Below are positions 767-61,182 of a stretch of 64,000 nt of DNA, piece after piece. The stretch comes from Candidatus Pacearchaeota archaeon (GTDB lineage Archaea; Nanobdellota; Nanobdellia; Pacearchaeales; GW2011-AR1), in NCBI GenBank assembly GCA_016186365.1, contig JACPLT010000001.1, positions 13,231 through 77,230 of the forward strand, in the 5' to 3' direction. Both the position numbers and the translations under genes were made by a program. The notes below the pieces were generated by a model. That model did not search any database and was not told the origin of the DNA. It saw nothing but the letters and a program-made list of their open reading frames with translations. Within the stretch, counting starts at the first letter, position 1; each line of letters begins with the position of its first letter.

Positions 767-827
767 TAGAACTTAAAATTGTTTATATACATTATTATAT
801 TACAGAATATATTTTAAATGACCCCGA

Positions 828-883
828 GGTTCAGAAAATTCTTAATTTTCTGACTGCTCAAAAATCTTTGATTTTTGACAGAT
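828..883. repeat. Double-hairpin element flanked by a 10-bp duplication of the tRNA 3' end
   Basis: tcagaaaatt-ctt-aattttctga and tcaaaaatc-ttt-gatttttga; atgaccccga at 818-827 and 884-893. Confidence 0.8.
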
Positions 884-884
884 A

Positions 885-959
885 TGACCCCGAAGGGATT
901 TGAACCCTCGACAACCGGATTAAGAGTCCGGTGCTCTAACCAGGCTGAGCTACGGAGCC
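885..959 (-). tRNA. tRNA-Lys(CTT), CCA not encoded
   Basis: Reverse complement GGCTCCGTAGCTCAGCCTGGTTAGAGCACCGGACTCTTAATCCGGTTGTCGAGGGTTCAAATCCCTTCGGGGTCA folds as a cloverleaf; anticodon stem CCGGA/TCCGG with CTT; T-loop GTTCAAATC. Confidence 0.95.
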
Positions 960-1108
960 GTAGCTCAGGAAATAATCATATATTTAAAAAGATGATGGAA
1001 CACTCTCTAAGGCTTCTTTCCAAGAATAAACTCTAGTTATATTAAGCGGGAAAGAAGTTGCTAGAAACTCCTAATAACATTTATAAATTGACTAAGACTT
1101 TAATATTT

Positions 1109-1546
1109 ATGAATATCTTTATTAGTATCTATGAAATTATTCTCCCTAATATTTGGATTTCTTATTTGTGTATTTTTGGATGGTTTATTTTGTTAATATA
1201 CTCTTTTTTGTTAGACATTAAAATATTAAGAGGCAGAGGTTTTATTAAAAAGAAGAATGGAAAATTTGAATCGCCTTTTCTTATGATTCCTAGATTTATT
1301 CTAATTGTTATACTCCATATTTTTTTATCAGTATTTTCTCTTCCAGCACTTGTAAAAATATTTGACTATAATTATTTTTGGATTCCTTGGGTGTTCATGC
1401 TCTTTTCTCAAATCTTATTGCACACTATTTTATTAGGCACTCCAAATCGGTCAATTTTAATGGGAGTTCATACGAGCAGGTTTTATATTCAAATTGAATT
1501 TGCAGATAAAATTGGAAGGAGATTAGATAGAATTTTTGGAAAATAA
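1109..1546 (+). CDS. Hypothetical membrane protein (about 4 TM)
   Basis: Hydrophobic stretches; ATG at 1109 follows a TTTATAAA box (ORF track starts at TTG 1058). Confidence 0.65.
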   Translation: MNIFISIYEIILPNIWISYLCIFGWFILLIYSFLLDIKILRGRGFIKKKNGKFESPFLMIPRFILIVILHIFLSVFSLPALVKIFDYNYFWIPWVFMLFSQILLHTILLGTPNRSILMGVHTSRFYIQIEFADKIGRRLDRIFGK

Positions 1547-1604
1547 CTTGTGGAGTGTTTTATAGTTTAAAAAGATTTATTAATTCCAAATATCTATAAA
1601 TATT

Positions 1605-1778: not shown

Positions 1779-1820
1779 AATGGAAGATAAATTGCTTTTT
1801 TATTTGTATTCTCGTTAGAT

Positions 1821-2564: not shown

Positions 2565-2592
2565 AAACTTCTAAGACTAATGATATGGTTAT

Positions 2593-2645
2593 TTTAAACA
2601 AGAGAGATAGATATATAATTTATTATCTATCTCTTTGTTTTAAAC
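2593..2645. repeat. Intergenic inverted repeat (hairpin)
   Basis: aaacaagagagatagata ... tatctatctctttgttt (one bulge). Confidence 0.55.
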
Positions 2646-27075: not shown

Positions 27076-27225
27076 CTGTCTCGTCGTGAGACGAGACAGT
27101 TTATGCTAAATGAAACTTAAAAATTCAAAAACAAATAAAATTTTTAAGATCTTGGAGATCTCAGAATCTTTGGATTCTGACGACTATCAAAGTTCCGAGA
27201 ACTTTGAAGTTTTTGAATCCCCAAG
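27076..27225. repeat. Hairpin cluster in the 5' region of the downstream gene
   Basis: ctgtctcgtc-gtga-gacgagacag; cttaaaaatt...aatttttaag; tcagaatc-tttg-gattctga; tcaaagttc-cga-gaactttga. Confidence 0.75.
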
Positions 27226-27252
27226 CTTTTAAATTCCTGATGGAGATTTAAA

Positions 27253-27600
27253 ATGGAAGACTTATTTGAAAATACTGTATTATGCAAGAATTGCCAGACT
27301 AAGATGAAACAGGCAAAGATAATCAGAAGTGGATTTGAGTTAAGAGCATTAGTCTGTGATAAATGCGAGAATAAAATTGTTCATCCTCAAGATGAAGCGG
27401 AATATAACCAATTTTTGAACTTGAGAAATAAAGAGTTCAGAGTTAAATTAAGACTTGTTGGAAACAGCTATGCTGTTTCTATTCCTAAAGAGGTGGTGGA
27501 TTTTATGAAAGAACAGGAAAAGATGTTTGATGATATGGTAAGATTATGTTTTCATGACGCTAAAAGAATAAATTTAATGTTTGGAGAGGAACATGAGTAA
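27253..27600 (+). CDS. Zn-ribbon plus AbrB/MazE-like DNA-binding protein
   Basis: CKNC...CDKC; KLRLVGNSYAVSIPKE. Confidence 0.8.
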   Translation: MEDLFENTVLCKNCQTKMKQAKIIRSGFELRALVCDKCENKIVHPQDEAEYNQFLNLRNKEFRVKLRLVGNSYAVSIPKEVVDFMKEQEKMFDDMVRLCFHDAKRINLMFGEEHE

Positions 27601-28252: not shown

Positions 28253-28327
28253 TGTTCGAAAATCAGAGATTTTCGACATCCAGAAAATTAAAATTTTCTG
28301 GCTCTCAAAAACCGGGGGTTTATTGAG
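28253..28327. repeat. Three tandem hairpins between the TATA box and the CDC48 start codon
   Basis: tcgaaaatc-aga-gattttcga; ccagaaaatt-aa-aattttctgg; ctcaaaaacc-ggg-ggtttattgag. Confidence 0.75.
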
Positions 28328-31300
28328 ATGGCAACAGCAAAAGAAGAGATAAAACTTAAAGTAGTAGAAGCACTGCAAGATGATGCGTATAAGGGGATTG
28401 CAAGAGTTGACCCCGAAATAATGAGAAAGTTAGGGCTGAAAAGAGGAGACATTGTTTCTATTAAAGGGAGCAGGGAGAGTGTTGCGATTGTTGATAGAGC
28501 GTATCCTGCGGATATAGGCGAGAATATAATAAGAGTTGACGGAATTATAAGAAAAAATGCTAAAACTGGAATTGGAGAGGTGGTGGTTGTAGGACGGGCA
28601 GATATTAAAGAAGCTAAAAAAATTACAATTGCACCTGCACAAAAAGGAATCATGGTTCAGGGAGACCCAGAAGCACTAAAGCCAGGATTATTGGGGAGAG
28701 CAGTTGTCAAGGGAGATATAGTTGTTTTGGGCGGGACAGCAAGAAGAAGAGATATAATGTCTGATATGGATTTATTTAATGATATTTTTGCAGAAGCTTT
28801 TTCTGGAATGGGTGGAATGGGAGGATTTGGAGGATTTTCAGCTTCAGGAACTAAATTTATGATTGTTTCATGCAATCCCACCCAGCCTTGTATCATAACT
28901 GAAAATACTGAGATTACGCTTAATCCTAAGGCCATGGATATTTCAGAAGATAAGGTTTTTGAAGTTACATATGAAGATATAGGGGGATTGGATGAAGAGC
29001 TTAAAAAAATAAGAGAGATGGTAGAACTGCCATTAAAACATCCAGAGATATTTGAAAAGCTGGGAATAGAGCCGCCAAAAGGAGTGTTGTTGCACGGTCC
29101 GCCAGGAACAGGAAAAACTTTACTTGCTAAAGCAGTTGCAAATGAAGCAGAAGCGAATTTTATCTTATTGAATGGGCCTGAAATAATGAGCAAGTTTTAT
29201 GGGGAGAGTGAAAAAAATTTAAGAGATAAATTTGACGAAGCTGAAAAAACTGCGCCTTCAATTATTTTTATTGATGAAATTGATGCTATCGCTCCAAAAA
29301 GAGAGGAAAGTTATGGGGAAGTTGAGAGAAGGGTTGTTTCTCAGTTATTGACTATGATGGATGGGCTAAAATCAAGAGGGAAAGTTGTGGTAATTGGAGC
29401 AACTAACAGACCGAATTCAATTGATCCTGCTTTAAGAAGGCCCGGAAGATTTGACAGAGAGATAAGCATTAATGTTCCGGATAAAAGAGGAAGGCTGTCT
29501 ATACTTAAAATTCATACGAGAAATATGCCTATTGAGCCTCCAATTAAAAAGGATTATCTTGAAAATCAGATACAAACACTATCGCAGAAAAATAAAGAGC
29601 TTGAACTAGTTATTAAATTAGAAAATGATAGCGAGCTAAAAAAACAAAAAATGCAGGAATTTTTTAACAATAAAGAAGAGATAAATTATCTTCAAAAAAT
29701 CAGTGATAAGTTTAGCGGGGAAGAGAAGAAAGATGAGAAAACATCCAAAGATTTAACACATAAAGAACAAGAAACTGCAATTAATATTTTTAGAAATGGA
29801 GTGTTAGATGAACTCGCAGCAATAACTCACGGATTTGTCGGGGCAGATTTGTCTTCTTTGGCTAAGGAGGCTGCGATGAATGTTTTAAGAAAAATACTTC
29901 CTAAGATTAAGATGCAGGACGGAGAAGAAATTCCTAAGGAGATTCTTGAAAGTTTGAGAGTGACTAAGAAAGATTTTATGGAAGCTTTGAGAACAGTTCG
30001 GCCTTCTGCTATGAGAGAGGTTTTGGTTGAAACTCCCAATATTAAATGGGATGATGTTGGAGGGCTGGGTGATATTAAGCAGGAATTAATAGAAGCTGTT
30101 GAATGGCCGATGAAATTCCCAGGAAGTTTTACAAGAATGGGGATAAGGCCCCCAAGAGGGATATTATTATATGGGCCACCAGGAACAGGAAAAACTTTAT
30201 TAGCTAAAGCAGTTGCAAAGGAGAGTGAAGCTAATTTTATTCAGGTTAAGGGGCCTTCTTTGCTGTCAATGTGGGTTGGCAAAAGCCTTCCCTATAATGA
30301 AGAGTTGATTGTTAAAGAAAATGGGGCGGTAAAAAAGATGAAAATAGGGGAGATAGTTGAGAAAAGAGCAGACGTGGAAATTCTTGCTTTTGACAAGGAT
30401 AAAAAGATAGCATTTTCCAGAATAGACGATTATATCAAACATAAATTAGATACTAATTTACTTGAAATAACCACAAGAACAGGGAGAAAAATAAAAGTAA
30501 CAGATTATCACTCTTTATTTTCATTTATCAACGGCAAATTTACAGATATCCCTGCAAGCCATTTAATAGCTGGAGAAAGTTATATTGCAATCCCTAAAAA
30601 TTTGAATCTTCCTAAGGATAGGATAAAAAATGTTAATTTATATAACTATTTTAAAAATGATGAAACTATATTTTTAGCCAATATTAAAGATTATCTTATA
30701 AGAGCAAAAAAAATATTGGGATTGGGAAGAACTGCAGAATTAATGGAAGTTTCTAAAAAGTATTTGGCAGATATAATCCTGAAAAATCTTCCTGTAAAAA
30801 TAACTAATTTTGAAAATTTGATAAACGAGGCAAAATTAGCTCTTGATTTTAATGATATAAAAATTAAATTGAAGGGAAGCATAAACGAATATCCTGCAAT
30901 ATTAAATATAGATAATGATTTTTGGAGATTAATCGGGTTATGGGTTGCAGAAGGGGATTTTAACAGTTCTACAGTTAGAATTCACAATACAAACAATGAG
31001 ATTAGGGAGGATATAATCAGAATTTGCACAAAATATAAGTTTAGTATATCTGAAATGCCTACTTGCATCACTATAAATTCGTTATTTTTACAAAAAATAT
31101 TGGAAAGGGTGTTTGAATTATTCTCTGGCTCGGATGCTAAAAGAGTTCCTGCTTTATTATTTACTTTAGACAAGGGAAGCAAGGCTAATTTTTTGAAAGG
31201 ATATTTCAGCGGTGATGGCTCAATTTATCCTGCTGAAAATGGAAAATTTAAAATAGAAGCAAGCACCATAAGCAAAGAACTCGCTAACGATTTGATGTAT

Positions 31301-32374
31301 TTATTTTTAGATTTTGGGATTGTTGCCACTTGCTATGAAAAAGAGCTAAAAACCGGAAGCACTTGTTATAGAATCAGCATTTTAGGAGTAAGAAATTTTG
31401 AGAGATTTAGCGAGATAGGTTTTATAGAAAATCAGAAAAATAAAAGAATTATGGATTATGTTAATTCTAGAAAGTGGAATAGGTCTGACGTTATTCCTTT
31501 GTCTGGCGAGCTTTATGAGCTAGCTTCTCAAAGTCAAAGTGTTTATTCAACTAATAAGTCTATAGGAAAAGAGGCGCTAAAGAACATGCTGATTTTGATA
31601 GACAAAGATAAAAGTAGATATAAAGAATATTGGGAATTAGTTGAAGGAGATTTATTTTTTGATTTAGTTAAAGAAGTAAAAATAATTAATGCTGAAAATT
31701 ATGTTTATGATATATCTGTTCCGGCAGGGCAGAATTTTATTGCTGGTTTTGGAGGAGTAATTGCCCATAATAGTGAAGAAGGTGTCAGAAAAATATTTGA
31801 GAGAGCAAGACAGGTAAGTCCATGCATCATATTTTTTGATGAAATTGATTCTCTTGCTTCTAGGAGAGGCGCGGATGCTGGGGGAGGAAGAGTTACTGAG
31901 CAGGTGTTAAATCAGTTGTTAGCTGAAATGGATGGATTGGAAGAGCTGAATAATGTTATTGTAATTGGGGCGACTAATAGGCCGGATATGCTTGACCCCG
32001 CTATATTAAGGCCTGGAAGATTTGACAGAATTTTATTGGTTTCAACTCCTAACAAAGAAGGAAGATTGTCTATACTTAAAATTCACACAAAAAATATGCC
32101 TCTTGCAAAAGATGTAGATTTAGATAAGATATCTGAACTGACTGAAGGTTATGTTGGTGCGGATTTGGAGAGCTTGGCTAGAGAGGCGGCTATGCTTGCT
32201 TTAAGAGAGAATAAAGATGCAAAAGAGGTTACAAAGAAAAATTTTGAGGATGCCATGAAAAAAGTTAGACCTTCTGTAAGCAAGCAGCTGATTGATAAAT
32301 ATAAAAAGATAGAGGAAGATTATCTTAAGAATGCCAAGGCGGCGATTGAGAAAGAGGCGCAGTATTTAGGATAA
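28328..32374 (+). CDS. cdc48: CDC48/VAT AAA+ ATPase (852-aa extein plus intein)
   Basis: N-domain, two AAA modules (GPPGTGKT twice, [21 protein letters not shown]). Confidence 0.96.
30284..31771 (+). mobile_element. 496-aa intein with LAGLIDADG homing endonuclease
   Basis: WVGK|SLPY...TDYHSLF...IGLWVAEG...LKGYFSGDG...VYDISV...AHN|SEEG. Confidence 0.93.
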
Positions 32375-36267: not shown

Positions 36268-36741
36268 CTATTTTTTTCTTCTGTATGTTCCTGCTCTTAT
36301 ATGTCTTAATATTTTATATCCTGAAACCTCTTTTGCAGGGAGATATTTTGCAGGATGTTTTTCAAAATCGGGATTTAATAATCTGTTTAATCTTCCTGTT
36401 AATCCTTTTTTTCTTTCTAATACCCATAAATCAAAATTTCTTGAATCCTCTGCCTTGCATACTAATCTGCTTCCTGATTTTATTAAATTATACCATTCTT
36501 GAGATTCTCCTTCATAAGAAGAATCTTCTTGATTTTCCTGGTCCATAGAGAGAATTAGAGGCTCTGAAAAAGAGCTTTCATCAACTTTGACTGATAAAAG
36601 CTTCTCATTTCTTTTTCCTTCGGATAATACCTGATTTGCACTACTAACTTTATAATACACATAACTGGCAAGAGTTTGTTTTGCCATTGTTTTTATAAGT
36701 ATCTTTGGCTTATAAGGATTGCTGTGATTAAAAACAATCAA
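36268..36741 (-). CDS. Hypothetical protein
   Basis: ORF downstream of polB; start uncertain (MAKQ...). Confidence 0.55.
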   Translation of the reverse strand: MIVFNHSNPYKPKILIKTMAKQTLASYVYYKVSSANQVLSEGKRNEKLLSVKVDESSFSEPLILSMDQENQEDSSYEGESQEWYNLIKSGSRLVCKAEDSRNFDLWVLERKKGLTGRLNRLLNPDFEKHPAKYLPAKEVSGYKILRHIRAGTYRRKK

Positions 36742-39284
36742 AATCCAGAAAGCTTTGTCTGCTTTCTGCCTTCTGCGAGCTCTTTGATATTTATGCTGAA
36801 AACATCGAAGATGTTTTCTACTGCCGGAATAATCTGATGATTAAGATAATAATCCAGATTATATTCCCCTTTTTCATCTGGAAGCTTGACTTTTTCTCTG
36901 ACAAGGGATTTTTTCTCGCGGGTTTCTGCAATAAAATAATGAATTAACATTCCGATATCTACGGGCATTCCTACCTGCTTCATTTTTTCTGCTGCTATTA
37001 CATGAGGAGTTATTGATTTATATTCTGAAAGAGGTTTTTTTAGCTGGGTTCTAATCATTATTTCTTCTCTCTGCACTTTTCTTTCTTTTAAATTTTTGAT
37101 TGTTTTCTTGACTAGTTCCAGAGCTTCTTTTTCATTACCTTGCTTTAATATTAATTCTAAAACTTTGCTCTGAAGCGCTCTTGCAAGAGGACACCAATCT
37201 CTTCTTACGGTTTCAAATCCGCGGATTTTCATCTTATTATTTTCGGTAATTAAAGCATATTTTTTTTTCGCGCCAGTGTCTGTTGTTTTTTTGGCAACCC
37301 AGATTCCTCTTTTATAAAAATCTTCTAATTCGAGAGCCATAATTCCAGGAAGATTTTTGTTTATTTTTTCTAGAAGTTCCAGGGCGCGTTCTTTTGTTTT
37401 ATTTTCTAGGATAAATGCAATTGAATCTGTATCTGAATAAACAACCTTGTATTCTGCTTTCTGTATTTTTTCTATAACCTCAAGAATATTTTTTCTTGAT
37501 AGTGCGGCTGTGGAAGCTGCAGCTTCTCTGCAATAATATCTGGCTCCAAAAAATCCCTGATAGCCATAGGCTGCATTTGCAATCAGTTTATAAGCATTGC
37601 TTCTAGCTTTTGTTATGGGGGAGGGATTTTTCTTGTATTCGGATTTATATTTTTTTCTTTTTTCTATTATTTTTTCTAATAAGTCTGGAAAAAATCCTTT
37701 TAATTTTGAGAAATATACAAGCCCTTCTTCTCCTAAATTCACTTCTAATGCATTTTTTTCTTTTTTCTTTAAAAATGTTGAAAGCGATAGATTATAACTT
37801 ACTATCACAGAAGAATACATACTGGTAAAATCAAAAAATGCGAGGTTTTCATATAATCCTGGAGTTGGCTGGAAAACAAAAGCTCCTTCATATTTTCCGA
37901 GATTTCTTCTTTTTCCTATTTCTTCATGAATTGGGCGTTTTTCTGCAATTTCATTATATTCATCAAGATTATGGAGAATATAACTTTCTACCAGCTGGGA
38001 CATGCCATTTCTTGTTATGTCAAAAATAGGCTCTTGAATAATCTTGCTTATCTCCAGGACATCGGGCCAGAGTTTTTCTGCAAGAAGAAAAGTTATCTTT
38101 GAGTCATGAAGATTATAATCAAAGAAATCTTTCCAATCTTCCTGACTTAGCTTATTCTGGGGTTTGAATTCAAACTCTTTTTTTCCCAATCCCAATAATT
38201 CTGAAGCAACTTCATCTAAGCCGAGTGTTTCTGACTGAAGATATTGTGAGAAGATGGTTTCTATAAATCTGAATAAGTCAATATGAACAATGCCAAAGAT
38301 ATTACCTGAGGATATCCTGCCTCTTGCAAATGAGGGCTGGGAGTTGTCTAATCCTAGGGAGAGTTTTATTCTATTGTATTCTGCTCTTGCTCTTAAATAA
38401 GGCAGGTCAAATCCGTCTGAAAAATATCCTACTAGGAAGTCAGGAGAGAGCTTTTTTACGTATTCTACAAATTTTTCAAGCATTTCTGCCTCGCTTGAGA
38501 AGCATTCTACGAAATCCTGCTTTTTTGTGCATTTTTTCCAGGTAAGAACTTTTTTATAGAAAATTCTGTTGGCGGTATCCCTCTTTTCGCAGAATTTTCT
38601 ATCTGGATAATTCTGGAACAACGTGCTAGGATTAACAGAATTATCCATAAAAGATTCAGAATAAAGAGAAATCATCAGTATTTCACCCTTTCCTATTTCA
38701 AATTCCTCTGCTTCTATATCAAATGCTAATATTTTTGGATTGAATTCTTTATCTGGGATTTTTTCTATTTTTTCTGCCATAATGCAGAAATCCGCATCAA
38801 TTGAAGTTATTCCTGAGAAATCCGAACTTCCTGTGAGAATTTCTCCTTCTGCAGAATACCATTCCATTGGATTAATCTCTTTTTCTTTTATGTATTTTGT
38901 AATTAGGGGAATATCATACTCTCTTCTGGCAATAATTTCTTTGTAATCTAACAGCTCTGCAATTTTATGGGAATCTTTATGATTTGTTATAAAAATTTTG
39001 AATGCTTTTACTTGTTTGCCTAGGAAATTTTTTTCTTCTAAAGAGATTTTTTCTACTTTTGTTGTTCTTGATGGCAGTTCTATCCTCTTTTTTTCTATCT
39101 CTTTTTTTAGCTCCTCAATCTTTTTATCGCCTGTTTTTTCATCTAAAATCGCATAGAATGAGGCAGGGAAATAATCAATTATACACACTCTTTTATTCTC
39201 TTTAGTCCTGCCTATCATTATTACATAATTTTTTCCATGATAATCAATATAGTCATAATATATGGGGGTGAATTCTAGTTTCAT
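36738..39284 (-). CDS. polB: Family B DNA polymerase with a 31-aa hairpin-derived insertion
   Basis: ExoI FDIE, ExoII FDLPY, DFTSMYSS, KLIANAAYGY, YSDTDS, KKKY, RGFETVRRDW, C-terminal PIP-like QTKLSGF. Confidence 0.96.
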   Translation of the reverse strand: MKLEFTPIYYDYIDYHGKNYVIMIGRTKENKRVCIIDYFPASFYAILDEKTGDKKIEELKKEIEKKRIELPSRTTKVEKISLEEKNFLGKQVKAFKIFITNHKDSHKIAELLDYKEIIARREYDIPLITKYIKEKEINPMEWYSAEGEILTGSSDFSGITSIDADFCIMAEKIEKIPDKEFNPKILAFDIEAEEFEIGKGEILMISLYSESFMDNSVNPSTLFQNYPDRKFCEKRDTANRIFYKKVLTWKKCTKKQDFVECFSSEAEMLEKFVEYVKKLSPDFLVGYFSDGFDLPYLRARAEYNRIKLSLGLDNSQPSFARGRISSGNIFGIVHIDLFRFIETIFSQYLQSETLGLDEVASELLGLGKKEFEFKPQNKLSQEDWKDFFDYNLHDSKITFLLAEKLWPDVLEISKIIQEPIFDITRNGMSQLVESYILHNLDEYNEIAEKRPIHEEIGKRRNLGKYEGAFVFQPTPGLYENLAFFDFTSMYSSVIVSYNLSLSTFLKKKEKNALEVNLGEEGLVYFSKLKGFFPDLLEKIIEKRKKYKSEYKKNPSPITKARSNAYKLIANAAYGYQGFFGARYYCREAAASTAALSRKNILEVIEKIQKAEYKVVYSDTDSIAFILENKTKERALELLEKINKNLPGIMALELEDFYKRGIWVAKKTTDTGAKKKYALITENNKMKIRGFETVRRDWCPLARALQSKVLELILKQGNEKEALELVKKTIKNLKERKVQREEIMIRTQLKKPLSEYKSITPHVIAAEKMKQVGMPVDIGMLIHYFIAETREKKSLVREKVKLPDEKGEYNLDYYLNHQIIPAVENIFDVFSINIKELAEGRKQTKLSGF
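38556..38648. repeat. 93-bp in-frame double-hairpin insertion in polB
   Basis: atagaaaattctg...cagaattttctat and tggataattctg...cagaattatcca. Confidence 0.8.
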
Positions 39285-40709: not shown

Positions 40710-40786
40710 CTTCTCTTATGTCCAGAATGCTTTAAGCATTCTTGAGCACTATCAGGAATAGGATGTATTCCTGAAGGAAAGAGAAG
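40710..40786. repeat. Branched hairpin element
   Basis: tgtccagaatgc-tttaa-gcattcttgagca and tcaggaata-ggatg-tattcctga inside cttctctt...aagagaag. Confidence 0.7.
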
Positions 40787-46545: not shown

Positions 46546-46712
46546 TGTCAAGAACCCTACACTAAAAGTGTAGGGCGTTTCGGGTTCTTGAGCATGTCAG
46601 AAACTTATGTTTCTGATCACTCTCAGAAATTAAAAATTTCTGAAGTGCTCAAAAATTGCGTTTATTTACTCACGAACTAAAGTAAGGAGGTTGTATAAAC
46701 CAATTTTTGACA
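46546..46712. mobile_element. Composite hairpin element (4 modules) flanked by TGTTA direct repeats
   Basis: tgtcaagaacc...ggttcttgagca, two small hairpins, tgctcaaaaattg...caatttttgaca; homologous to the reverse complement of 51118-51240. Confidence 0.8.
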
Positions 46713-46953
46713 TGTTAAGGTTACCCATATTATATTTTGTGTAACTTTGAGATTACCTATATTTGTGAGTCTTTTGGCAGTTATGACTTTGAAACGCTAA
46801 ACTAGCAATTAAAACATTAAGAAAAGAACTTGAGAATTAATTATTTAACATCAATAATAGTGGGCTTTTATTGAGTTACAAATAGATTTATTTTTAATTC
46901 AGAAAAATAATTGCCTTTAGCAATAATTACTTTTTTATTTTTTATCTGTAGAA

Positions 46954-47110
46954 TGTTACATTCATGTCATATTTGTTACATTCATGTCATATTTGTTACA
47001 TTCATGTCATATTTGTTACATTCATGTCATATTTGTTACATTCATGTCATATTTGTTACATTCATGTCATATTTGTTTTTGTTACATTCATGTCATATTT
47101 GTTACATTCA
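46954..47110. repeat. Tandem repeat, 20-bp unit tgttacattcatgtcatatt, 7 full copies plus a partial
   Basis: Perfect copies with one 6-nt interruption at 47074-47079; no spacers. Confidence 0.95.
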
Positions 47111-47184
47111 AACTCCTAAAAGTTTTCCTTAAATTAAGGAAAATAGTATATAAAAATTTCCTATTTTAAAGGAAAACTTTATTT

Positions 47185-47451: not shown

Positions 47452-47649
47452 TTTTCTATGTATATAGTAAAAGACAAAAAATTTTTAACCAACTTTTTTC
47501 TTTTCTTATCTATTAAAGGACAGAAAATGGTTAATTATTAATATCCTTTAATATAATATAGCGGTAACAAAATATCCCCGTTTTATTAACTTTTAAGTAA
47601 TTACTATATTTTCCGAAATATTTATAAAGACGGGGAAAATTAATTATTT

Positions 47650-51017: not shown

Positions 51018-51308
51018 ATGAAAAAAGATAATACTCATCAAGAGCAAATAGAAAGATGGGCAGAATATGTAAAGAATAATGAAAATTGGAGGCAAATTCA
51101 TACTAAATTTATTGACATGTCAAAAATTGGTTTATGCAAGCTCCTTGTTTTAACTCGTGAGAAAATAAAATCAATTTTTGAGCATGCTCAAGAACCAGTA
51201 TGGCGTACACGCCATACACTTCAGTGTATGGTTCTTGACAGCCAATTTGAGATTGCAAGGAAATTTTATAAAGATCTTGAGAAAACAGCAAAAGGAAGGG
51301 AGATATAG
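51018..51308 (+). CDS. Small hypothetical protein containing a 41-aa hairpin-element insertion
   Basis: ...HTKFID[MSKI...MVLD]SQFEIARKFY...; AAGGAG SD. Confidence 0.65.
   Translation: MKKDNTHQEQIERWAEYVKNNENWRQIHTKFIDMSKIGLCKLLVLTREKIKSIFEHAQEPVWRTRHTLQCMVLDSQFEIARKFYKDLEKTAKGREI
51118..51240. mobile_element. 123-bp two-module hairpin element, in-frame
   Basis: tgtcaaaaattg...caatttttgagca plus tgctcaagaacca...tggttcttgaca; ttgaca duplicated at 51112-51117 and 51235-51240. Confidence 0.82.
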
Positions 51309-51511
51309 AGAACTGCGTAGCTTGTATGACATTTATCCAGCAGTTCTCTATCTGTTTAACTGCACTAAATTGTCATCTAACTAATGCAGTTATCCATATT
51401 AAAAAAATTGAGGGAGGAAAAATTAAAAAATGACAAGTTATGATGTTATTGAAGTGTCAGAGATTTTCGCTGAAGCTCTAATCCCTGAACACTTCCAAAA
51501 CAAGGAGCAAA

Positions 51512-52279
51512 ATGACAAGTTATGATGTTATTGGAAGTATAGCAATACTGAAGTTTCCGAGGGGAATGAAGAAAAGCGAGAAGAAGAAAACAGCTTTGGA
51601 ATTGCTGGAAAAGCACAAAAATCTAAAAACTGTTGTTGAAAAGTCAGAAAAGGTAAGGGGAAGATTGAGGACGATAAAAACATTATTTCTTGCAGGAGAG
51701 AAAACAAAAGAGAGTATTCATAATGAATCTGGATGCAGGTTTAAATTAAATATTGAAAAGTGCTATTTTTCTCCTAGATTGAGCAATGAAAGAATAGAAG
51801 TTGCAAAAAAAATAGCAGAAGGGAGCAAGGTTTTGGTTTTATTTGCAGGGGTTTCTCCGTTTTCTATTGTTATTGGAAAAATTGCCAAGCCAGAAAAAAT
51901 TGTTTCTGTTGAGCTTGGAAGAGAGTGCTGCAGATATGGCAAAGAAAATGCCAGACTGAATAAACTTGAGAGAGTGGTGGAGATTGTTCAGGGAGATGTC
52001 AAGAAATTAAAAAAATTAATTAAAAAAAGAAAGTTTGATGTGATAGTTATGCCTCGTCCGCAACTTAAGGAAACTTTTCTTGCTTATATCTGGGAATTCT
52101 GCAAGAAAGATACAGAAATATTTTATTACGGATTTGGGAAGGATATTGAGGAAATAGTTTCAGAAATAGAGAAAGAGGCAGGGAAAGCTAAAAAGAAAAT
52201 CAGGATTATTGAAAAAAGAAATGCAGGAGATATTGCTCCGTATAGATATAGGTTTTTAGTTAGGTTTAAGTTAGTTTAA
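51512..52279 (+). CDS. Trm5/Tyw2-family tRNA SAM-dependent transferase (Met-10+ like)
   Basis: SYDVIGSIAI, HNESGCRFKL...YFSPRLSNER, LFAGVSPF, N..LN, GDV, MPRP. Confidence 0.88.
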   Translation: MTSYDVIGSIAILKFPRGMKKSEKKKTALELLEKHKNLKTVVEKSEKVRGRLRTIKTLFLAGEKTKESIHNESGCRFKLNIEKCYFSPRLSNERIEVAKKIAEGSKVLVLFAGVSPFSIVIGKIAKPEKIVSVELGRECCRYGKENARLNKLERVVEIVQGDVKKLKKLIKKRKFDVIVMPRPQLKETFLAYIWEFCKKDTEIFYYGFGKDIEEIVSEIEKEAGKAKKKIRIIEKRNAGDIAPYRYRFLVRFKLV

Positions 52280-52473: not shown

Positions 52474-52770
52474 TATTGAACCTTTAGGTGTGCGAGACCA
52501 GGACATATGTCCTGAACCTATACACTATTGAACCTTTAGAAGGCTTCAAGAACTTATGTTCTTGACAGTGCTCAGAAACTGAGAAAATTCCAGAAGAATT
52601 TTCGAGGTGCTCAGAAACTGAGAAAATTCCAGAAGAATTTTCGAGGTGCTCAAAAACCCAAACATATCTTACGCTTCAATGCAAGGTTTTTGACATGCAC
52701 GATATAAATAGCATTTCTGACATTCCCAACTCTCGTGCTTTCAGCACAAGTCAGCACTTTAAGTGCTGCT
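52474..52770. repeat. Nested cluster of hairpin modules with a 14-bp direct repeat and a 39-bp tandem duplication
   Basis: tattgaacctttag at 52474 and 52526; gtgctcagaaactgagaaaattccagaagaattttcgag twice (52568-52645); several TGCTCA..TGACA stems. Confidence 0.8.
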
Positions 52771-52793
52771 CGCCCCTAAGCTATATTCTCTTT

Positions 52794-53064
52794 TCAATCT
52801 TAATAGCAGTTAAACCTTTAGAAAAGGTTTCCAAACTATCAGTTAAAGTCGCTTTTCGACTTTAACTGCTGTTGGAGCCTCTCCGCAGGTACCCAACCGT
52901 CGTATTTCGCTATGCTCAATACAACTTGCAACCATAAAGGTTGCCTTTCTCCAACTGCTCAAATTCTTTTATCAATCTTAATCGCAGTTAAACCTTTAGA
53001 AAAGGTTTCCAAACTATCAGTTAAAGTCGCTTTTCGACTTTAACTGCTGTTGGAGCCTCTCCGC
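52794..53064. repeat. 93-bp direct repeat including the 3' end of the HerA-like gene
   Basis: 52794-52886 versus 52972-53064, one mismatch. Confidence 0.85.
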
Positions 53065-54754
53065 CGTGCCAGGTGAACTTGGGGCGGACTCGCATGGGAT
53101 AAATTCTTTCTGAATTGTCGTCGAGAATAATTGCTGAGCCCTTTAAACTCGGAAGTTCATCCATATATTTGTTTATGCTTGAATAAACATAAGACTGCAT
53201 TATTTCATTTAGTGCCTGAATATCCGGAAGGGCAGTAACTCTATGAGACAAGATTATATCTGCTTGTGTTATTGCATCTTTTGCAAGAGAGCCGGGCTGT
53301 TGTGTGGCCATAACTAGGCTTATTCCTGGCTGCCTTCCCTCTCTTAATAACTGGATTAAAGCATCTGTTGCAGGAGTTTTTCCATCATTGGGCAGGAATT
53401 CGTGAACTTCATCAATAAAAATCCAGACAAGAGGCATCTCCCTCTTTTGCTTGAATGAAAGATAGTCAATCCCATGCTGAACTGCCTGAACTTCTTCTGT
53501 TTTTCTTGACAGCATTCTTTCCTTGAAAAGCTTTTTTGATATCAAACTTATAACTAGAGCGCGAACATTAAATGCCCCTGTCGAGGAATACATGCTCAAA
53601 TCAAGAACTGAAGTTTCTCCTGCTTTTATCAGTTTGGAAATTTCTGTTTCCTGCTCTGAAAACACTTTCCAGGAATCTGCTGCTTCAAATAAACTTGAAG
53701 CAGAGTTTCTTGCATCAATTGTTGAGCTGTGTTCAGAATCTATTTTTTTAATTATGTCTTTTATTGAAAAATTTAGATTTTCTTCTTTCAGCGTGTTTAT
53801 CACTTTTTCTATCAAAACAGCAACTGGCTCGGTTATAGAGAGATTAAAAGTTGTTATCCAGTCTTCTGATTCCAATTCTTTTGGAGAAATTGAAAACTTT
53901 TCATCAACAGGAATCCCTCTTTTTTCATAATCTTCAAAATATCCCAATGGAATAAAAATTTTTACAGGCGTCTTTTTAGGCTTAAGTTTCCATTCTTCCA
54001 GCAAATCTTTTTCTTTTTCATTTTCGAATTTCATTGTCCAGAATACTCCCATTGTATCCAGTATAAGCCCTGCAATGTTTTCTCTTTCCTCTTGAGGCAG
54101 AGTTGCGAGTTCTTCTGCTATTACTCCCAGAGAATAAGACTTTCCCGAATTATGTGAAATAATTCCATTAGCAATAAATGAATGATTTTTATCTACAGAT
54201 AAATCATAAACTTTTTTTATCCCCTCTATAATTTTTATATTTTTTATCCTAACAGGAAATAAATCTGTAAAATTATTATTAACTGATATTAATTTATCTC
54301 CTTTATTTAATTTTTCTGCTTCCATCCATAGAAGAGATAACAATTTTTCTCCAGAAGTTATCAGCAGGGGGTGCTCTTTTGTCAGCTGCAGTTTTCTGCC
54401 GTCTTCTAATTCTATTTCTATAAGATTTTCACTTATAGGGTATTCTAATAACTCTGCATTTTCCCATTCAAACTTTTTTTCATCTTTGTTGAAAGAGAGA
54501 ATTTTGTTTTCTTTGTTAAAATCTTTTATCGGTAAATATCCTTTATCGGTAAAGATAGATGTTCCTTCAGTCAGACATCCTCTTTTTCCTGAAACCAGGA
54601 CTACATGGCTTCTTGCGATGTCCATATAAATCGGATTTGACAGCGAAGTATACTGCCCCATTTTTACGAAACCTTTTCCTAGATAAATCAACCCTCTTTT
54701 TTCGAACCTCTTTTTGTCTGAAGAATCTCTTCCTATGATTATATCATATGGCAT
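53021..54754 (-). CDS. HerA/DUF87-family ATPase with mini-intein
   Basis: Walker A SGKRG|..|SGKS, ILDTMG, Walker B FIDEVHEF, LREGRQPGISLVMATQQP. Confidence 0.9.
   Translation of the reverse strand: MPYDIIIGRDSSDKKRFEKRGLIYLGKGFVKMGQYTSLSNPIYMDIARSHVVLVSGKRGCLTEGTSIFTDKGYLPIKDFNKENKILSFNKDEKKFEWENAELLEYPISENLIEIELEDGRKLQLTKEHPLLITSGEKLLSLLWMEAEKLNKGDKLISVNNNFTDLFPVRIKNIKIIEGIKKVYDLSVDKNHSFIANGIISHNSGKSYSLGVIAEELATLPQEERENIAGLILDTMGVFWTMKFENEKEKDLLEEWKLKPKKTPVKIFIPLGYFEDYEKRGIPVDEKFSISPKELESEDWITTFNLSITEPVAVLIEKVINTLKEENLNFSIKDIIKKIDSEHSSTIDARNSASSLFEAADSWKVFSEQETEISKLIKAGETSVLDLSMYSSTGAFNVRALVISLISKKLFKERMLSRKTEEVQAVQHGIDYLSFKQKREMPLVWIFIDEVHEFLPNDGKTPATDALIQLLREGRQPGISLVMATQQPGSLAKDAITQADIILSHRVTALPDIQALNEIMQSYVYSSINKYMDELPSLKGSAIILDDNSERIYPMRVRPKFTWHGGEAPTAVKVEKRL
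54149..54577 (-). mobile_element. 143-aa mini-intein in the Walker A loop
   Basis: CLTEGT...LTKEHPLL...VYDLSV..NHSFIANGIISHN|S; no endonuclease. Confidence 0.93.
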
Positions 54755-57502: not shown

Positions 57503-57667
57503 TGTTAAGTATGTAATCAAATTTAACATCTACCCCTTTGTCCCAAGATTAATTAATAGCAGGAATTTTATTATTCCTCCCTATTAATGAGGGGGAAAAA
57601 TCAAATTCTCTGGAAATAATAGTTTTATTGGGAGGGGGAAATGTTAAACTTTATAGTTTACTTAATA
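57503..57667. mobile_element. MITE copy A (165 bp), TGTTAAGTA ends, 5-bp TSD
   Basis: tgtgc|tgttaagta...tacttaata|tgtgc; homologous to the reverse complement of 60909-61139. Confidence 0.78.
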
Positions 57668-57723
57668 TGTGCTATAAAATACAAAAATAACCCTTGGATA
57701 AATATTTATAAACTATATTTTCT

Positions 57724-59886
57724 ATGATAACAATCATGATATTGAGAAAAAAAAGAGGAATAAAAGGGAGTATCCCGTTATATTTGGTATTTATATTTGC
57801 TTCTTTATTTCTGCTGGTATTTTCTTTTATTATTTTGTCTGGAGTTAAAAGGGAGATTACTGGAAAAGCAATAGTATTCCCTAACTGTCCTGGAGTGGTT
57901 ATTCCGGATTGCGAGAGGGGAAAACTATTAAGCACTGGGACTAATTTTTCAAGCGGCTGTCCTTATTCTATTGTGTGCTGTGGGAATGGCCAGTGCGAAA
58001 CAGGAGAAACTTTGATTAATTGTGCTGCTGATTGTTCTGGAACAAATCCTCCCAGTTCGAATACGAATACTCTTTCAATTAGCTTAGTTTATCCGCCAAA
58101 TAATCAAAATTTTAGCTCTTTAACAAATTATAATTTTATGTTTCTTGCTTCTGATGGTTCTGGAATAAATAAGAATGTCAATTGCTCATTTTTTGTCAAG
58201 AGTATCTTTAACCAATCTGCTAGAATAAGCATTAATCCTGGAAGCAGGTTTAATGTTGGAACAGCCCTTGAGGGAAATGGGGTTTTTGGTTATGTTCTCC
58301 CCTCTTTTGGAAGTTATAACTGGCAGATTAAATGCAAAGATGATGCTGGAAATGAGGGAGTTTCTGAAACAAGAGCATTTTCGGTTGTTCAAGTATCAAA
58401 TGTAGATACAACTCCTCCCACAATTACATTAGTTTATCCTGCTGTAAATAACCAGACATTTTATTCAACAAGCAATAATTTTGCATTTAAGACAAGCGAT
58501 TTAATTTTTCCAACCGGTATTAGTTGTAATCTTTTTTTGGATAGCGGTCTTGTTAAATCTATGAATGTTAATAATTCGCAATTGGCTTATTCTCAGATTA
58601 ATACTTCTTTTGGGAGCCATAGCTGGCAGGTAAAATGCAGGAATAGTGCTAATAATGAGGGGGCTTCTCCTTTGATAAATTTTAATGTAGTTAATTATAG
58701 TCAGATATATAATCCAGGAGTTAATTGCCCCTCTGTAACTCCTCCCTCTTGTGTTAATGGAACTTTAATAAATATGACTGCTTCTTTTGGAGGATGCTTA
58801 TTAGGATATACTTGCTGTGGAAATGCTAATTGTGAATCTCCTTATGAAAGCCAAAGAAATTGTGCTGCTGATTGTTCTGGGCAGATAGCAACCCCTTCGG
58901 GTTATTTTGAGATTGTGTTGGGCGAGATTGAGGGAGAAAGTTTGAATTGGGCATTCAATCAACCCTTAAATTTTAGTGCTATGATTAACTCTACATTTCC
59001 TAGAAGTTCATTTTCCTGCGGTTTTTATGTGGATAATAATTTTTATAGAAATATAATCTTTCCTGATTCCGGGACTAAAGGAGGAATTATCAAAATACCT
59101 ATTGACAAATATGCCGGAACTCTTTCAGCAGGAATTCATACTGCTTATGCTAGATGCGGAATTCTTATTAGTGATTCCAGCGGACAGAGAATTGAAAAAA
59201 CCTCTCAAGTTTCTACATTTAGTGTAAATGGGGTGAGTGATACTCCTGGAGAAAGCAATAACAGCATTCCTCCTGCGGTTTTAATTGTCAGCCCTATAAA
59301 TGATACTTATCCCAGCTCTAGTGTGTTAGTGGATATCAGAGGGCAGAATTTAACTTCCCTTATTGTTTATGATGGTGCCAGCAATAATAGCTGTTCTAAT
59401 ATTTCTTCCTGCCAAATTAATGGGATATATCCTGAAGGAAGCTATCATATTATTTCTTATGGACAATCTCCAGTAGGAGTGATAGTTAAAGATTTATGGT
59501 TTAGTGTTAATTCTTCTTATGCCAACTCTTCTGTTTATTATGACCAAAATGAAACTTCCTTAATAAATAATGATACTATCGCTGGAAATCCTCAAACTAA
59601 TGAAAATACTGTCAACATTAATAGTGTTTCATCAAGCAATGTTACAACTAATATCACTGAAACTCTATCTGCAATATTGATTGGGGAAGATGGTGGAGGA
59701 TTATGGTGGGGAATTATTATATTTGTGATTTCATTAATAATTATTGTAGTAGGAACACTTATCACTTTATTATTGAACAAGCCAAAAGAAGAGAGTGAAA
59801 ACGAAGAGAATACAAGTTTAGTGAATGGAGAAATTGTTGAAACTAGCAATCCTGAAAATGGGACTCTATCTTCCTCTTCCGGCTAA
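57724..59886 (+). CDS. Cys-rich surface protein with Ig-like domains and C-terminal TM
   Basis: Two CPxVxxPxC...CCGN..CE..E...NCAADCSG modules, W.xKC Ig-like domains, TM, acidic tail. Confidence 0.85.
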   Translation: MITIMILRKKRGIKGSIPLYLVFIFASLFLLVFSFIILSGVKREITGKAIVFPNCPGVVIPDCERGKLLSTGTNFSSGCPYSIVCCGNGQCETGETLINCAADCSGTNPPSSNTNTLSISLVYPPNNQNFSSLTNYNFMFLASDGSGINKNVNCSFFVKSIFNQSARISINPGSRFNVGTALEGNGVFGYVLPSFGSYNWQIKCKDDAGNEGVSETRAFSVVQVSNVDTTPPTITLVYPAVNNQTFYSTSNNFAFKTSDLIFPTGISCNLFLDSGLVKSMNVNNSQLAYSQINTSFGSHSWQVKCRNSANNEGASPLINFNVVNYSQIYNPGVNCPSVTPPSCVNGTLINMTASFGGCLLGYTCCGNANCESPYESQRNCAADCSGQIATPSGYFEIVLGEIEGESLNWAFNQPLNFSAMINSTFPRSSFSCGFYVDNNFYRNIIFPDSGTKGGIIKIPIDKYAGTLSAGIHTAYARCGILISDSSGQRIEKTSQVSTFSVNGVSDTPGESNNSIPPAVLIVSPINDTYPSSSVLVDIRGQNLTSLIVYDGASNNSCSNISSCQINGIYPEGSYHIISYGQSPVGVIVKDLWFSVNSSYANSSVYYDQNETSLINNDTIAGNPQTNENTVNINSVSSSNVTTNITETLSAILIGEDGGGLWWGIIIFVISLIIIVVGTLITLLLNKPKEESENEENTSLVNGEIVETSNPENGTLSSSSG

Positions 59887-60825
59887 TACAAAAGAAGCGA
59901 GAAGAGACTCGAGCTGAATAAATTCATCGCTTCCTTCAACAAGCCTGAATTCTATCTCGCCAGTTTTTTCTATTAGTTTTACTTTTAGTTCGGGTTCTAT
60001 ATTTAAGTTCCAGATTTCTTTTTGTATTGCCTTGATTATGTCCTGTCCAGAAATGCTCTCTTTTAACATTATATCCAGAAGCTTTTCTCTTGAATTGACA
60101 AAATCTCCGCTCAAGGCATATTCTAAAACTATCTTAATATCTGAAGGTTTTGCTGATGATACCACTGTAGTAATCAAGTCATAGGTTATTTTTGGGGATA
60201 TTGAAGAGGTAGCTTGCAAAAGGTTGATAACTCGTCTGCAGTCTCCTTCACTTGATTCATAAATTGCTTCTGCTGCTTTTTCTTCTATCTCGAGCTTTTC
60301 TGACTCTGCTATTCTTTTAATTATTTTTTCTATATCTTTTTTTTCTAATAACCTGAAGCGAAATATTGCGCATCTTGATTGAATGGGATCGATAATCTTG
60401 CTGGAATAGTTGCAGGAGAGAATAAATCTGCATGTTGAGGTGAAGTTTTCCATTGTTCTTCTTAATGCCTGCTGTGCCTCTCTTGTCAGGGCGTCAGCTT
60501 CGTCTAAAAATATTACTTTAAATGGAACTTTTCCAATAGCTTTGGTTCTTGCAAAATTCTTTACTTCCTGCCTGACTACATCTATTCCTCTTGCGTCTGA
60601 AGCGTTGAGTTCCAAATAATTTTCCTTCCAAGAGCTTCCAAATAATTCTTTTACTATAACGATAGCAAGGCTTGATTTTCCTGTTCCTGCAGGACCTGCA
60701 AATAATAAATGAGGGATGTTCATTGAATTAGTGAGCCCTTTCACTCTTTTTACAATGTCTTCCTGCCCAGTAATTTCATCGAAAGTATTTGGTCTGAATT
60801 TCTCAGTCCAGATTTCACTTGTCAT
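59866..60825 (-). CDS. rfcS: Replication factor C small subunit
   Basis: WTEKFRP, PHLLFAGPAGTGKS, ELNASDARG, FLDEADALT.EAQQALRR.ME, IQSRC. Confidence 0.96.
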   Translation of the reverse strand: MTSEIWTEKFRPNTFDEITGQEDIVKRVKGLTNSMNIPHLLFAGPAGTGKSSLAIVIVKELFGSSWKENYLELNASDARGIDVVRQEVKNFARTKAIGKVPFKVIFLDEADALTREAQQALRRTMENFTSTCRFILSCNYSSKIIDPIQSRCAIFRFRLLEKKDIEKIIKRIAESEKLEIEEKAAEAIYESSEGDCRRVINLLQATSSISPKITYDLITTVVSSAKPSDIKIVLEYALSGDFVNSREKLLDIMLKESISGQDIIKAIQKEIWNLNIEPELKVKLIEKTGEIEFRLVEGSDEFIQLESLLASFVLAGRGR

Positions 60826-60908
60826 AATAATTGGGGTTAAATCTTTTTTATAAACATTTCTATAGTCTAAGCGCTAAATATTTAAATAGTTTTTAGTTCT
60901 TATCTTAT

Positions 60909-61139
60909 TGTTAAGTAAACCTTGTAAATTAACATCCCGGGGATTGAATATTATTCACAGAGAATTTGATTTTTCTCCCTCATTATGTCAGAAATGCTAT
61001 TTGCCTCGTGCATTTCTGAGCACCCTAAAAACTCACAATTCAATAGAGTTTTTTTGGTAGGGGAGAACAAATAAAATTTCTGCTATACTATTAATTTAAC
61101 GCTAGGCGGAGGATGTTAAGTTAGATTATAGACTTAACA
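60909..61139. mobile_element. MITE copy B (231 bp) with a nested hairpin-module insertion
   Basis: cttat|tgttaagt...acttaaca|cttat; extra about 70 bp (60986-61056) absent from copy A. Confidence 0.82.
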
Positions 61140-61182
61140 CTTATCTGTCAGAAAACATAGTTTTTGAATAATATACCTGTTT

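Follow-up and report, generated by a model that had tools for sequence, protein, structure and literature searches.

The hairpin clusters in the 64,000-nucleotide stretch of a Candidatus Pacearchaeota genome analysed here (the window) are several families of gene-less mobile elements. A single family, as proposed in an earlier note on this DNA, is not supported: the families differ, and the TA-flanked B elements are unrelated to the elements with a target guide. The explanation that we consider probable as a whole combines guided IS200 miniatures with guide-less double hairpins (K). These kinds of element are already known. New are the lineage, the outer stems around both element ends, the named partner clade and the swapping of ends with six or more guide/target pairs. 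Sequence inspection confirmed the described stem-loops at all 11 listed loci, and perfect stems of at least 9 bp are clearly enriched (30 in the window versus 7, 5 and 4 in three order-2 Markov simulations). The modules also recur at distant sites as claimed, with 185 BLAST matches in both orientations across the 967-kb assembly of the window's own genome (G000, the contigs of which carry C-numbers) and 42 multi-module arrays counted genome-wide. A K-type pattern has 77 matches in G000 and none for its reversed control. Hence, a streamlined DPANN genome holds dozens of such elements. Their reading as mobile units stands with respect to non-autonomy, empty sites and nesting, but not to present-day activity: no empty-site joint, excision junction or empty allele occurs among the matches listed for contigs of separate runs.

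An IS200-type miniature of 123 bp (51117..51239, plus strand) consists of a left-end and a right-end module. Its left guide (51137-51140) predicts the flank at 5/5 positions of the target pentamer (51112-51116); a right guide (51208-51211) and a terminal cleavage pentamer (51235-51239) were read from the sequence. A 98% copy is found on C6, and relatives on C8 and C25. A second miniature (46547..46713, minus strand) carries a K unit, and its left guide (46690-46693) fits the flank (46714-46718) at only 3/5 positions. Overall, a 4-nt internal guide predicts the tetranucleotide of the upstream flank in 33 of 40 left ends with six different guides, while 20,000 shuffles yield a mean of 10.7 and a maximum of 22. 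In further genomes, with guides read by eye, the rule fits 12/18 ends (shuffle mean 3.0, maximum 10), and in metagenome loci 89/105 (mean 58, maximum 72). G000 alone contributes 3/5 left ends, the element at 46547 being among the misses, and one miniature family of G121 follows the rule at the last two positions only. Autonomous IS200 ends, read by eye, obey the same rule, although the right end of L046 at first seemed an exception. In 57/57 copies, an A follows the right end; IS608 and ISDra2 are known to prefer a certain base at +1 (as described in part of PMC5934647). The flanks are otherwise varied and show no target duplication, a single A being ambiguous, and a miniature inside an IS200 tnpA gene, the one reconstructable site, has left no duplication (L282). 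The covariation of left guide and flank, the shared inner hairpins and the lack of target duplication are direct observations. In addition, two-sided changes affect 7 of 8 pairs of the inner helix in 20 aligned right-end modules, which bears out the claim that structure is recognised, whereas 6 of 7 outer pairs are invariant. Recombination of left with right modules is combinatorial, the loop of one left end lies inverted within its outer stem (L092), and a fully collapsed miniature is present on C39.

The idea that no archaeal counterpart exists had to be abandoned, as both PATEs (palindrome-associated transposable elements) of Haloquadratum walsbyi and SMR-A elements of Haloquadratum are known (relevant parts of PMC3119063); papers on these elements in Pacearchaeota were not found in the open-access literature. 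As far as the pertinent sections of PMC3119063 and of a report on PATE-like minimal IS200/IS605 elements of Geobacillus (10.1101/2023.03.14.532601) describe them, such elements share with our miniatures the lack of a transposase gene and of target duplication, the near-terminal hairpins in common with an IS200/IS605 element, and a short target motif that is kept at the left flank and covaries with the guide. PATEs are described there without terminal inverted repeats, whereas each end of the miniatures is enclosed by a near-perfect outer stem. Because these stems produce inverted termini, we regard the miniatures as a PATE-like variant and not as strict PATEs. Combinatorial left and right modules and a tnpA-only IS200 clade as the probable partner set them further apart. 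With IS608 and ISDra2, as portrayed in the passages concerned of PMC5934647, the miniatures share a guide 5' of the hairpin that pairs with the cleavage site, as well as the +1 preference; they differ by lacking a transposase gene, by the extra outer stems and by the pairing of the right-end cleavage motif within such a stem.

The miniatures are very likely of IS200 origin, the only subclass seen in Archaea according to the part of PMC6006769 concerned. Their mover is, with good confidence, predicted from sequence comparison to be a transposase of one IS200 clade (clade X, a starred clade, 100/99), acting in trans. In G000, contig C26 begins with the C-terminus of a clade-X tnpA (64.5% over 31 aa) and its right end, and left ends with differing flanks lie at the starts of C2 and C28. 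This IS is multi-copy and cut by contig ends; as its gene was not assembled whole, it may be broken. The C26 right end has an 8-bp stem identical to that of the 46547 miniature, and between both right ends the first guide base and the -3 cleavage base have changed together, so that guide and cleavage site covary between autonomous and miniature ends. Moreover, the inner hairpin of a clade-X left end of G143 is nearly identical to that of the miniatures, and clade-X left ends already sit inside an outer stem. Co-occurrence is weak: clade X occurs in only 4 of 17 module-bearing genomes versus 10 of 233 others (p 0.01, with clade calls made by eye and kin that are not independent), whereas any Y1 gene occurs in 7/17 versus 59/233 (p 0.16). 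The lineage profile (E<=1) detected no Y1 gene in G024, G121, G103, G158 and G217, which are rich in miniatures or K, and neither did tblastn in all 615 kb of G024. G024 nevertheless harbors near-identical copies. The HUH-mover claim is retained in part: a Y1 transposase likely mobilises the large elements in trans, but a RAYT is not supported. Clade-X TnpA would peel off and paste the miniatures as single strands, with the internal 4-base guide matching the upstream flank. The outer stems, in which the terminal cleavage motif is repeated along with its complement around each of the two ends, might aid folding or extrusion of the DNA and allow modules to be swapped. With a small clade named as the candidate source of the transposase, and with short natural substrates that offer at least six guide/target pairs, the retargeting of IS200 ends becomes directly testable.

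K units consist of two tandem hairpins (50-70 bp) with inverted ends and cause no target duplication. For 43 of 65, an empty paralogue of the filled site exists in our comparison, a direct observation. A 2+2 boundary fits 37 of these 43 and is the sole fit in 12, while a 3+1 boundary, judged by eye, suits a G150 family better. Judged by eye as well, the hosts at the 43 sites are mostly hairpins of PATE/IS200-type elements, and K sits in TTTA-loop hairpins in G024, G121, G150, G159 and G240. Right-end modules occur in 9/19 K-rich genomes versus 8/231 others. K has no guide and no conserved tetranucleotide flank, and its boundary is one base off the canonical one. In the 46547 miniature, a K unit (46595..46645, plus strand) lies at the junction of both end modules without duplication, and the sequence formed by joining its flanks is present at 15 other places in the sequences searched. 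Another (40719..40776, plus strand, read from sequence) lies upstream of a FEN1-like gene with XPG domains, where it fills the loop of an intergenic hairpin with 8-bp arms (40710-40717 and 40779-40786); it has homologues elsewhere in the genome and is not among the units listed with an empty paralogue. A third (27159..27209, plus strand) is nested in a start-codon unit, the empty form of which was found once. A K-like double hairpin (818..893, minus strand) is enclosed by two 10-bp copies of the 3' end of tRNA-Lys (gene 885-959; repeats 818-827 and 884-893), and similar tRNA-end duplications occur at around eight other loci. An M double hairpin with K-like geometry (60986..61057, plus strand) fills the central loop of a family A element. 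Finally, a single short hairpin with K-like arms (61146..61167, plus strand) has, like the hairpin at 51452-51495, no second copy in the genome by BLAST of the assembly.

In the overall explanation, K would have arisen by loop collapse of such miniatures, and the same kind of Y1 enzyme would carry it, without a guide, into the hairpins of other elements. That a Y1 enzyme moves K is possible, if somewhat short of an even chance. The fuller reading, in which K units are parasites of parasites, collapsed IS200 miniatures devoid of guide and recognition loop that Y1 pastes into folded DNA, chiefly TnpA-bound hairpins, is more tentative and on balance unlikely. If true, K transposition would be single-stranded and targeted to structure rather than sequence, the SMR-A elements of haloarchaea would be accounted for, and, together with swappable end modules, these genomes would constitute a natural library of retargeted IS200 ends. 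The mechanism of such hairpin-attacking repeats was termed enigmatic in the section of PMC3119063 that treats them, and for small repeats that attack hairpins of IS200/IS605 elements, K provides both the sequences and the exact junctions. As characterised in that section, SMR-A shares with K the inverted ends, the lack of target duplication and a strong preference for PATE and IS200/IS605 hairpins. K acts like SMR-A, yet we do not consider it a member, because its two tandem hairpins span 50-70 bp instead of ~110 bp, the comparison being one of descriptions. In contrast to SMR-A as depicted there, K has arms similar to the outer stems of the main host and also enters B, D and family A elements as well as tRNA duplicates.

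A serious alternative, though one that we would sooner doubt than accept, is that K, M and D are moved without duplication by a non-Y1 enzyme that binds their conserved arms (for instance a recombinase of the tyrosine or serine type, or a transposase that escaped recognition), the miniatures merely being preferred targets, as was proposed for SMR-A (same part of PMC3119063). The K arms are conserved in sequence while the loops vary, the boundary differs from that of Y1 elements, 11 of 19 K-rich genomes have no Y1 match, and the genes of G000 include a resolvase-like ORF and three for tyrosine recombinases. On the contrary, no candidate gene adjoins K or the miniatures as a fixed partner, only the XerA-like recombinase of the three has a G024 homologue among the matches listed, and K ends copy the terminal motif and spacer of the miniatures. 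It is improbable that K spreads without any enzyme, by template switching or gene conversion, and survives only where host hairpins stay intact. In G024, all seven K copies share one sequence and one position in the right-end hairpin; local duplications (10-81 bp, with fold-backs) lie beside hairpins, and the inverted L092 loop would suit such a process. However, the same K subfamilies with exact boundaries are found in unrelated hosts without flanking homology (miniature junction, B centre, D spacer, family A loop and tRNA duplicate).

The insertion in the PolB gene is an element of its own, for which an IS630 transposase acting at TA is the likely mover. This B element (38557..38647, plus strand) comprises 91 bp between two TA dinucleotides and lengthens the exonuclease region of the gene (36738-39284, minus strand) by 31 in-frame codons. 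It is missing from 9/9 aligned orthologues (gap of 30-31 residues), which provides the empty-site orthologues that had been called for. Of the in-frame insertions claimed by the note, PolB is the only one in the window, and it lacks TCA..TGA ends. Two further elements were absent from the earlier listing: an intergenic B element (51306..51396, plus strand) and a B3-type TA-flanked double hairpin (47463..47555, plus strand, limits approximate). B has TA on both sides and the empty site one TA, such that a TA duplication is indistinguishable from blunt T|A insertion. The ends of the PolB element appear to resemble those of an IS630 on C37 with an intact DDE_3 ORF; this match reaches 20-23/30 in only one subfamily, and 29 B copies average 14 and 16 of 30 against a background of ~11. 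We consider it likely, with considerable confidence, that B is an IS630-type MITE. The pertinent part of PMC2229807 covers IS630-dependent MITEs (including RUP, ERIC and Correia) and Rickettsia palindromic elements and cites in-frame archaeal repeats. B resembles the elements outlined there in its TA flanks, length of ~91 bp, apparently IS630-like ends and in-frame fusion in a conserved gene, but each half of B folds alone and a strong local IS630 match is confined to one subfamily.

Start-codon (D) units carry a ribosome-binding site (RBS) and leave an ATG. The one at 27111..27253 (plus strand) follows an A and begins with TG; its terminal hairpin, the loop of which is purine-rich, is followed by the ATG at 27253, and paralogues are present on C12, C27 and C42. 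Another (28253..28328, plus strand) has three hairpins; the third one immediately precedes the cdc48 start codon and has a G-rich loop. The likely reason why D units persist at start codons is their RBS hairpin end, together with the ATG left behind. Together with in-frame additions as in PolB, they distort the annotation of gene starts and proteins in this lineage. The duplications described earlier hold for the tRNA-Lys end (10 bp), a gene start (25 bp) and a 14-bp repeat, but no long one is present at 27110-27253 or 28253-28328. The 25-bp repeats (51427-51451 and 51509-51533, within 51427..51533, plus strand) duplicate the start of a Trm5/TYW2 methyltransferase gene and enclose the single-copy hairpin and a purine-rich, RBS-like stretch. 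The 14-bp repeats (52474-52487 and 52526-52539, within 52474..52539, plus strand) flank a 38-bp element. Its halves are similar to the two ends of an IS that is present in multiple copies at contig ends and that we take to be IS481-like from its TG..CA ends. Next to this element lies a stack of nested hairpin modules (52544..52722, plus strand), which contains a right-end-like module and a tandemly duplicated stretch of 39 bp; the empty form of its host hairpin is on C17. Family A, an imperfect palindrome of ~160 bp, has 44 profile matches genome-wide and no consistent target duplication. In the window, it occurs enlarged by the M unit (60910..61138, unstranded) and as an empty copy (57504..57660, unstranded, limits approximate) not listed before.

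Mosaic arrays of short hairpins, reminiscent of BIMEs, and probable HUH chemistry are shared with REP/REPIN-RAYT systems. One REP/REPIN family with a domesticated single-copy RAYT, or a shared 5-nt core as in integron attC, is nonetheless very improbable. K junctions do show only a purine|pyrimidine preference, and family A contains 7-mers that we take for an attC-like or dif-like pattern. Yet all inspected Y1 genes are IS200-type with their own guided ends, which speaks against the proposed RAYT system, and flanks follow the tetranucleotide guide instead of the proposed core. B is TA-flanked and unrelated, hairpins are added in pairs and never singly where an empty site exists, and no cassette ORFs were found between modules. 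REPs carry a GTAG/CGTC-type tag 5' of the hairpin; none was found among the feet and spacers listed, nor was a single-copy RAYT-class Y1 flanked by repeats found in these incomplete assemblies.

An origin of the clusters as artefacts of assembly, or as hairpins that AT-rich DNA forms by chance, has a negligible probability: this is a short-read assembly of a repeat-rich genome with several contigs ending in repeats, but the stems are enriched over simulations, the same modules exist in other genera, and separately assembled contigs cross four loci unchanged, which refutes the artefact reading for these four. The contigs stem from four runs of one study, one of which may be the source sample. 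Locus 46546 is entered but never spanned. Locus 27116 is spanned by contigs of runs X1 and X3, 28253 by X1 and X2, and both 38556 and 40719 by all four runs, with zero differing letters in the contig pieces.

The stem-loops themselves are real, as the described hairpins are present at all 11 loci (11/11) for which they had been reported. Perfect stems of at least 9 bp number 30 in the window, compared to 4–7 in three simulations, and module copies occur throughout the source assembly (G000; 967 kb in 43 contigs, 82% complete; the window is contig C43:13231-77230), in line with the recurrence at distant sites reported in the earlier note. Concerning possible assembly artefacts, contigs assembled from four runs, all belonging to the same study, cross the loci at 27116, 28253, 38556 and 40719 without differences; no empty-site joint occurs in the contigs of those runs among the matches listed. 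The repeats do not form the single family that had been proposed. A self-comparison of G000 yields 263 repeated regions (38.6 kb in total, IS ends and protein repeats included), which fall into several unrelated families: two-module miniatures, the double hairpins K and M, start-codon units (D), the TA-flanked element B, the palindromic family A, family C and tRNA-end duplications. At least five multi-copy ISs are unassembled and interrupt the G000 assembly at contig ends. A 21-base module pattern matches 33 loci among GTDB genomes, the titles of which all name Nanoarchaeota, Pacearchaeota or Woesearchaeota, so that the source is probably a DPANN archaeon of Pacearchaeota type. In Rfam at the gathering threshold tRNA is the sole match, and a search of viral contigs with the right-end pattern gives a single match, within a coding region, which we take as chance.

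The miniatures (46547-46713 and 51117-51239) are gene-less and of IS200 type. Each of their modules consists of a long outer stem around an inner hairpin whose loop is of the TTTA type, and the four bases that precede this hairpin are read as a guide predicting the upstream flank. Guide base 4 is taken to pair with position -1, which agrees with the published guide and site sequences of IS608. In the latter element a guide of this sort pairs with the cleavage site, and passages of PMC5934647 give both sequences, with guide bases 1 and 2 pairing with positions -3 and -4. Left ends were collected by one regular expression, which missed some copies, from G000, 572 kb of the related genome G024 and 19 of the 33 GTDB-genome loci, omitting those that duplicate G024. 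The tetranucleotide predicted by this pairing is found at the flank in 33 of these 40 left ends, across six guides (20,000 shuffles: mean 10.7, maximum 22). Within G000 alone this holds for three out of five left ends, the 46547 element in the window being a miss. Further genomes, for which guides were read by eye and loci without a readable left end were excluded, follow the rule in 12 of 18 loci, previously unseen guides among them (shuffle mean 3.0, maximum 10). For metagenome loci it is 89 out of 105 readable ends (shuffle mean 58, maximum 72), a set that is non-independent because two guides dominate and copies identical to those of G024 are included. As the copies are kin throughout, the shuffles are evidence of covariation and do not provide a probability. 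Across an alignment of 20 right modules, 93% of the cells pair under a structure that is our own reading of these same sequences; two-sided changes occur at seven of the eight inner pairs, and six of the seven outer pairs are invariant. At one locus a miniature lies inside the tnpA gene of an IS200 and is not accompanied by a duplication. At locus L092 (1400-1470), the inner hairpin and guide of the left module are inverted within the outer stem and the flank still agrees with the guide; the left module of L152 is similar in look.

Among the Y1 loci of module-bearing relatives, one clade of IS200 tnpA genes (clade X; support 100/99) has ends that match those of the miniatures. In G000 the assembly splits this element: C26 opens with its right end and the C-terminus of its tnpA, and both C2 and C28 open with its left end, with differing flanks. 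Its right end and that of the 46547 element have an identical 8-bp stem, and between the two a joint change affects guide base 1 and cleavage base -3; the left guide of the clade-X element agrees with the adjoining flank. The outer stem is already present in clade-X left ends, and the inner hairpin of the one in genome G143 is nearly identical to that of the miniatures. The proposed co-occurrence with a Y1 transposase was tallied by hand over 250 further genomes from this order, of which 17 have the right module. It is weak, which counts against this partner: clade X is present in 4/17 versus 10/233 (p 0.01), and any Y1 match in 7/17 versus 59/233 (p 0.16). No autonomous element with the exact left-end core of the miniature appears in metagenomes among the matches listed (122 distinct loci). 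A lineage-profile search of five repeat-rich genomes gives no Y1 match, nor does tblastn across 615 kb of G024, and a scan of G024 ORFs (572 kb) for the HUH motif yields no plausible candidate. Between the G024 and G000 proteomes no common mover is evident among the matches listed, a reverse-transcriptase-like ORF in both excepted. Judged by sequence appearance, such ORFs lie at C6:80092-81354 and C11:48048-48521 of G000 and at C4:47569-48620 of G024, and are presumably of the DGR type. A tyrosine recombinase and a resolvase-like ORF are encoded in an integrated element at C42:18984-22312 of G000. ISs are often missing from assemblies, G000 being one case, and passages of PMC3119063 describe the same paradox of elements and no Y1 match in Haloquadratum. 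As main partner, the IS200 at G000 contig ends that shares a hairpin with family C is rejected on its different ends. The same goes for the one IS200 behind all four matches of a PF01797 search of G000 (C20, C27, C37 and C43). A second family of double hairpins, of 30–35 bp, occurs in autonomous IS200s from more than one clade, within the 5' arm of their right-end hairpin (G000 C20:1850-1905, C27 and C43:135-200; L044, L050, L058, L282, L316, L326 and L328), where the insert seems to be tolerated because its G000 host is multi-copy.

How the K units move is the most interesting remaining piece. A K unit (50–70 bp) comprises two short hairpins, a 5–6-base spacer and 2-base feet. Empty paralogous sites were found for 43 out of 65 units (G000, G024 and 378 kb of genome G121) and reveal insertion without duplication. 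A 2+2 boundary fits 37 of the 43 and is the sole fit in 12, versus one for 3+1; at 31 of the 37 sites a pyrimidine comes after an A. K lies in miniatures (at module junctions or in inner hairpins), in the middle of B, in the spacers of D, in family A and in tRNA duplicates, and the same host types recur in G150, G159, G240, G093 and G217. At least eight matches to the K-type pattern occur in 19 of 250 genomes. Right modules are present in nine of these 19 K-rich genomes versus eight of the 231 others, and a Y1 match in 8/19 versus 58/231 (p 0.11). Neither a guide nor a conserved flank was found in K sequences. Carriage by a Y1 enzyme is the route we tentatively favour, somewhat short of an even chance, because the arms and spacer of K recur in the miniatures and one miniature, on C39, is collapsed. 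A bulge-helix-bulge intron geometry seems, by eye, not to agree with the 2-base feet.

The insertion in PolB amounts to 91 bp plus one TA. PolB-family matches occur in 18 of 20 relatives, and the aligned orthologues (9/9) are without the 30–31 residues at the insertion. An intact, TA-flanked IS630 on C37 has B-like ends; the likeness is strong for one subfamily but weak when all are averaged. At 60861-60909 the left half of a B3-type element adjoins family A, which looks as though it had been inserted there with loss of the right half. Nine other G000 ORFs were compared to G024 for in-frame inserts: four have no match, three have no long gap and one matches merely a 25% paralogue. In the last (C40), a family-C element coincides with a gap of 44 residues, which confirms one of several family C copies lying within called ORFs.

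Passages of PMC3119063 report PATEs and SMR-A from an archaeon, SMR-A entering the palindromes of PATEs and IS605 by a mechanism left unknown there and causing no duplication. Parts of 10.1101/2023.03.14.532601 describe PATE-like elements with covarying guides in Geobacillus, and PMC2229807 deals with IS630-linked MITEs, citing Suyama 2005 for in-frame repeats in archaea. In sections of PMC6006769 the IS200 subclass is the sole Y1 subclass seen in Archaea, and in those of PMC13343696 IS200/IS605 is the most common of the archaeal IS families. In behaviour the miniatures resemble PATEs, from which their inverted termini set them apart, and K resembles SMR-A at a shorter length. Based on this comparison, the miniatures are PATE-like, K is SMR-A-like and B a probable IS630-type MITE, and the REP/REPIN-like (RAYT) assignment of the earlier note is abandoned. 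The system is a variant of element kinds already known.

D units have a K-like geometry. Of their 28 terminal hairpins, 23 precede a TG that completes an ATG, four precede another hairpin unit and one precedes neither; at 18 of the 23 a frame of at least 76 codons begins. Family A, an imperfect palindrome of about 160 bp (57504-57660 and 60910-61138 in the window; 44 matches genome-wide), has no consistent target duplication across 22 full copies and is absent from the 397 kb of G024 that were searched. Each of its ends resembles 11-6-11 inverted arms, which we take to be a dif-like layout. A hairpin of family C, a 90-bp repeat with around 25 copies in G000 (e.g., C40:1544-1692, C20:7438-7533, C27:22494-22640, C30:6105-6180), also occurs in the left end of a different IS200 that lies at contig ends. 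At about nine loci (G000 C1, C6, C10, C12, C17, C24, C27 and C32; 818-893 in the window), tRNA-end duplications of 10–46 bp surround hairpin-rich inserts of 60–200 bp, for which a putative integrase route is plausible. Both copies share the local gene's own variants at two tRNA-Ser loci, which indicates local copying. A 20-bp unit is repeated in tandem at 46934-47119 (about eight copies). Finally, cdc48 (28328-32374) contains an intein with a LAGLIDADG domain, and a HerA-like gene (53021-54754) contains another intein; the 3' end of the latter gene is included in a 102-bp direct repeat of 97% identity (52785-52886 and 52963-53064).
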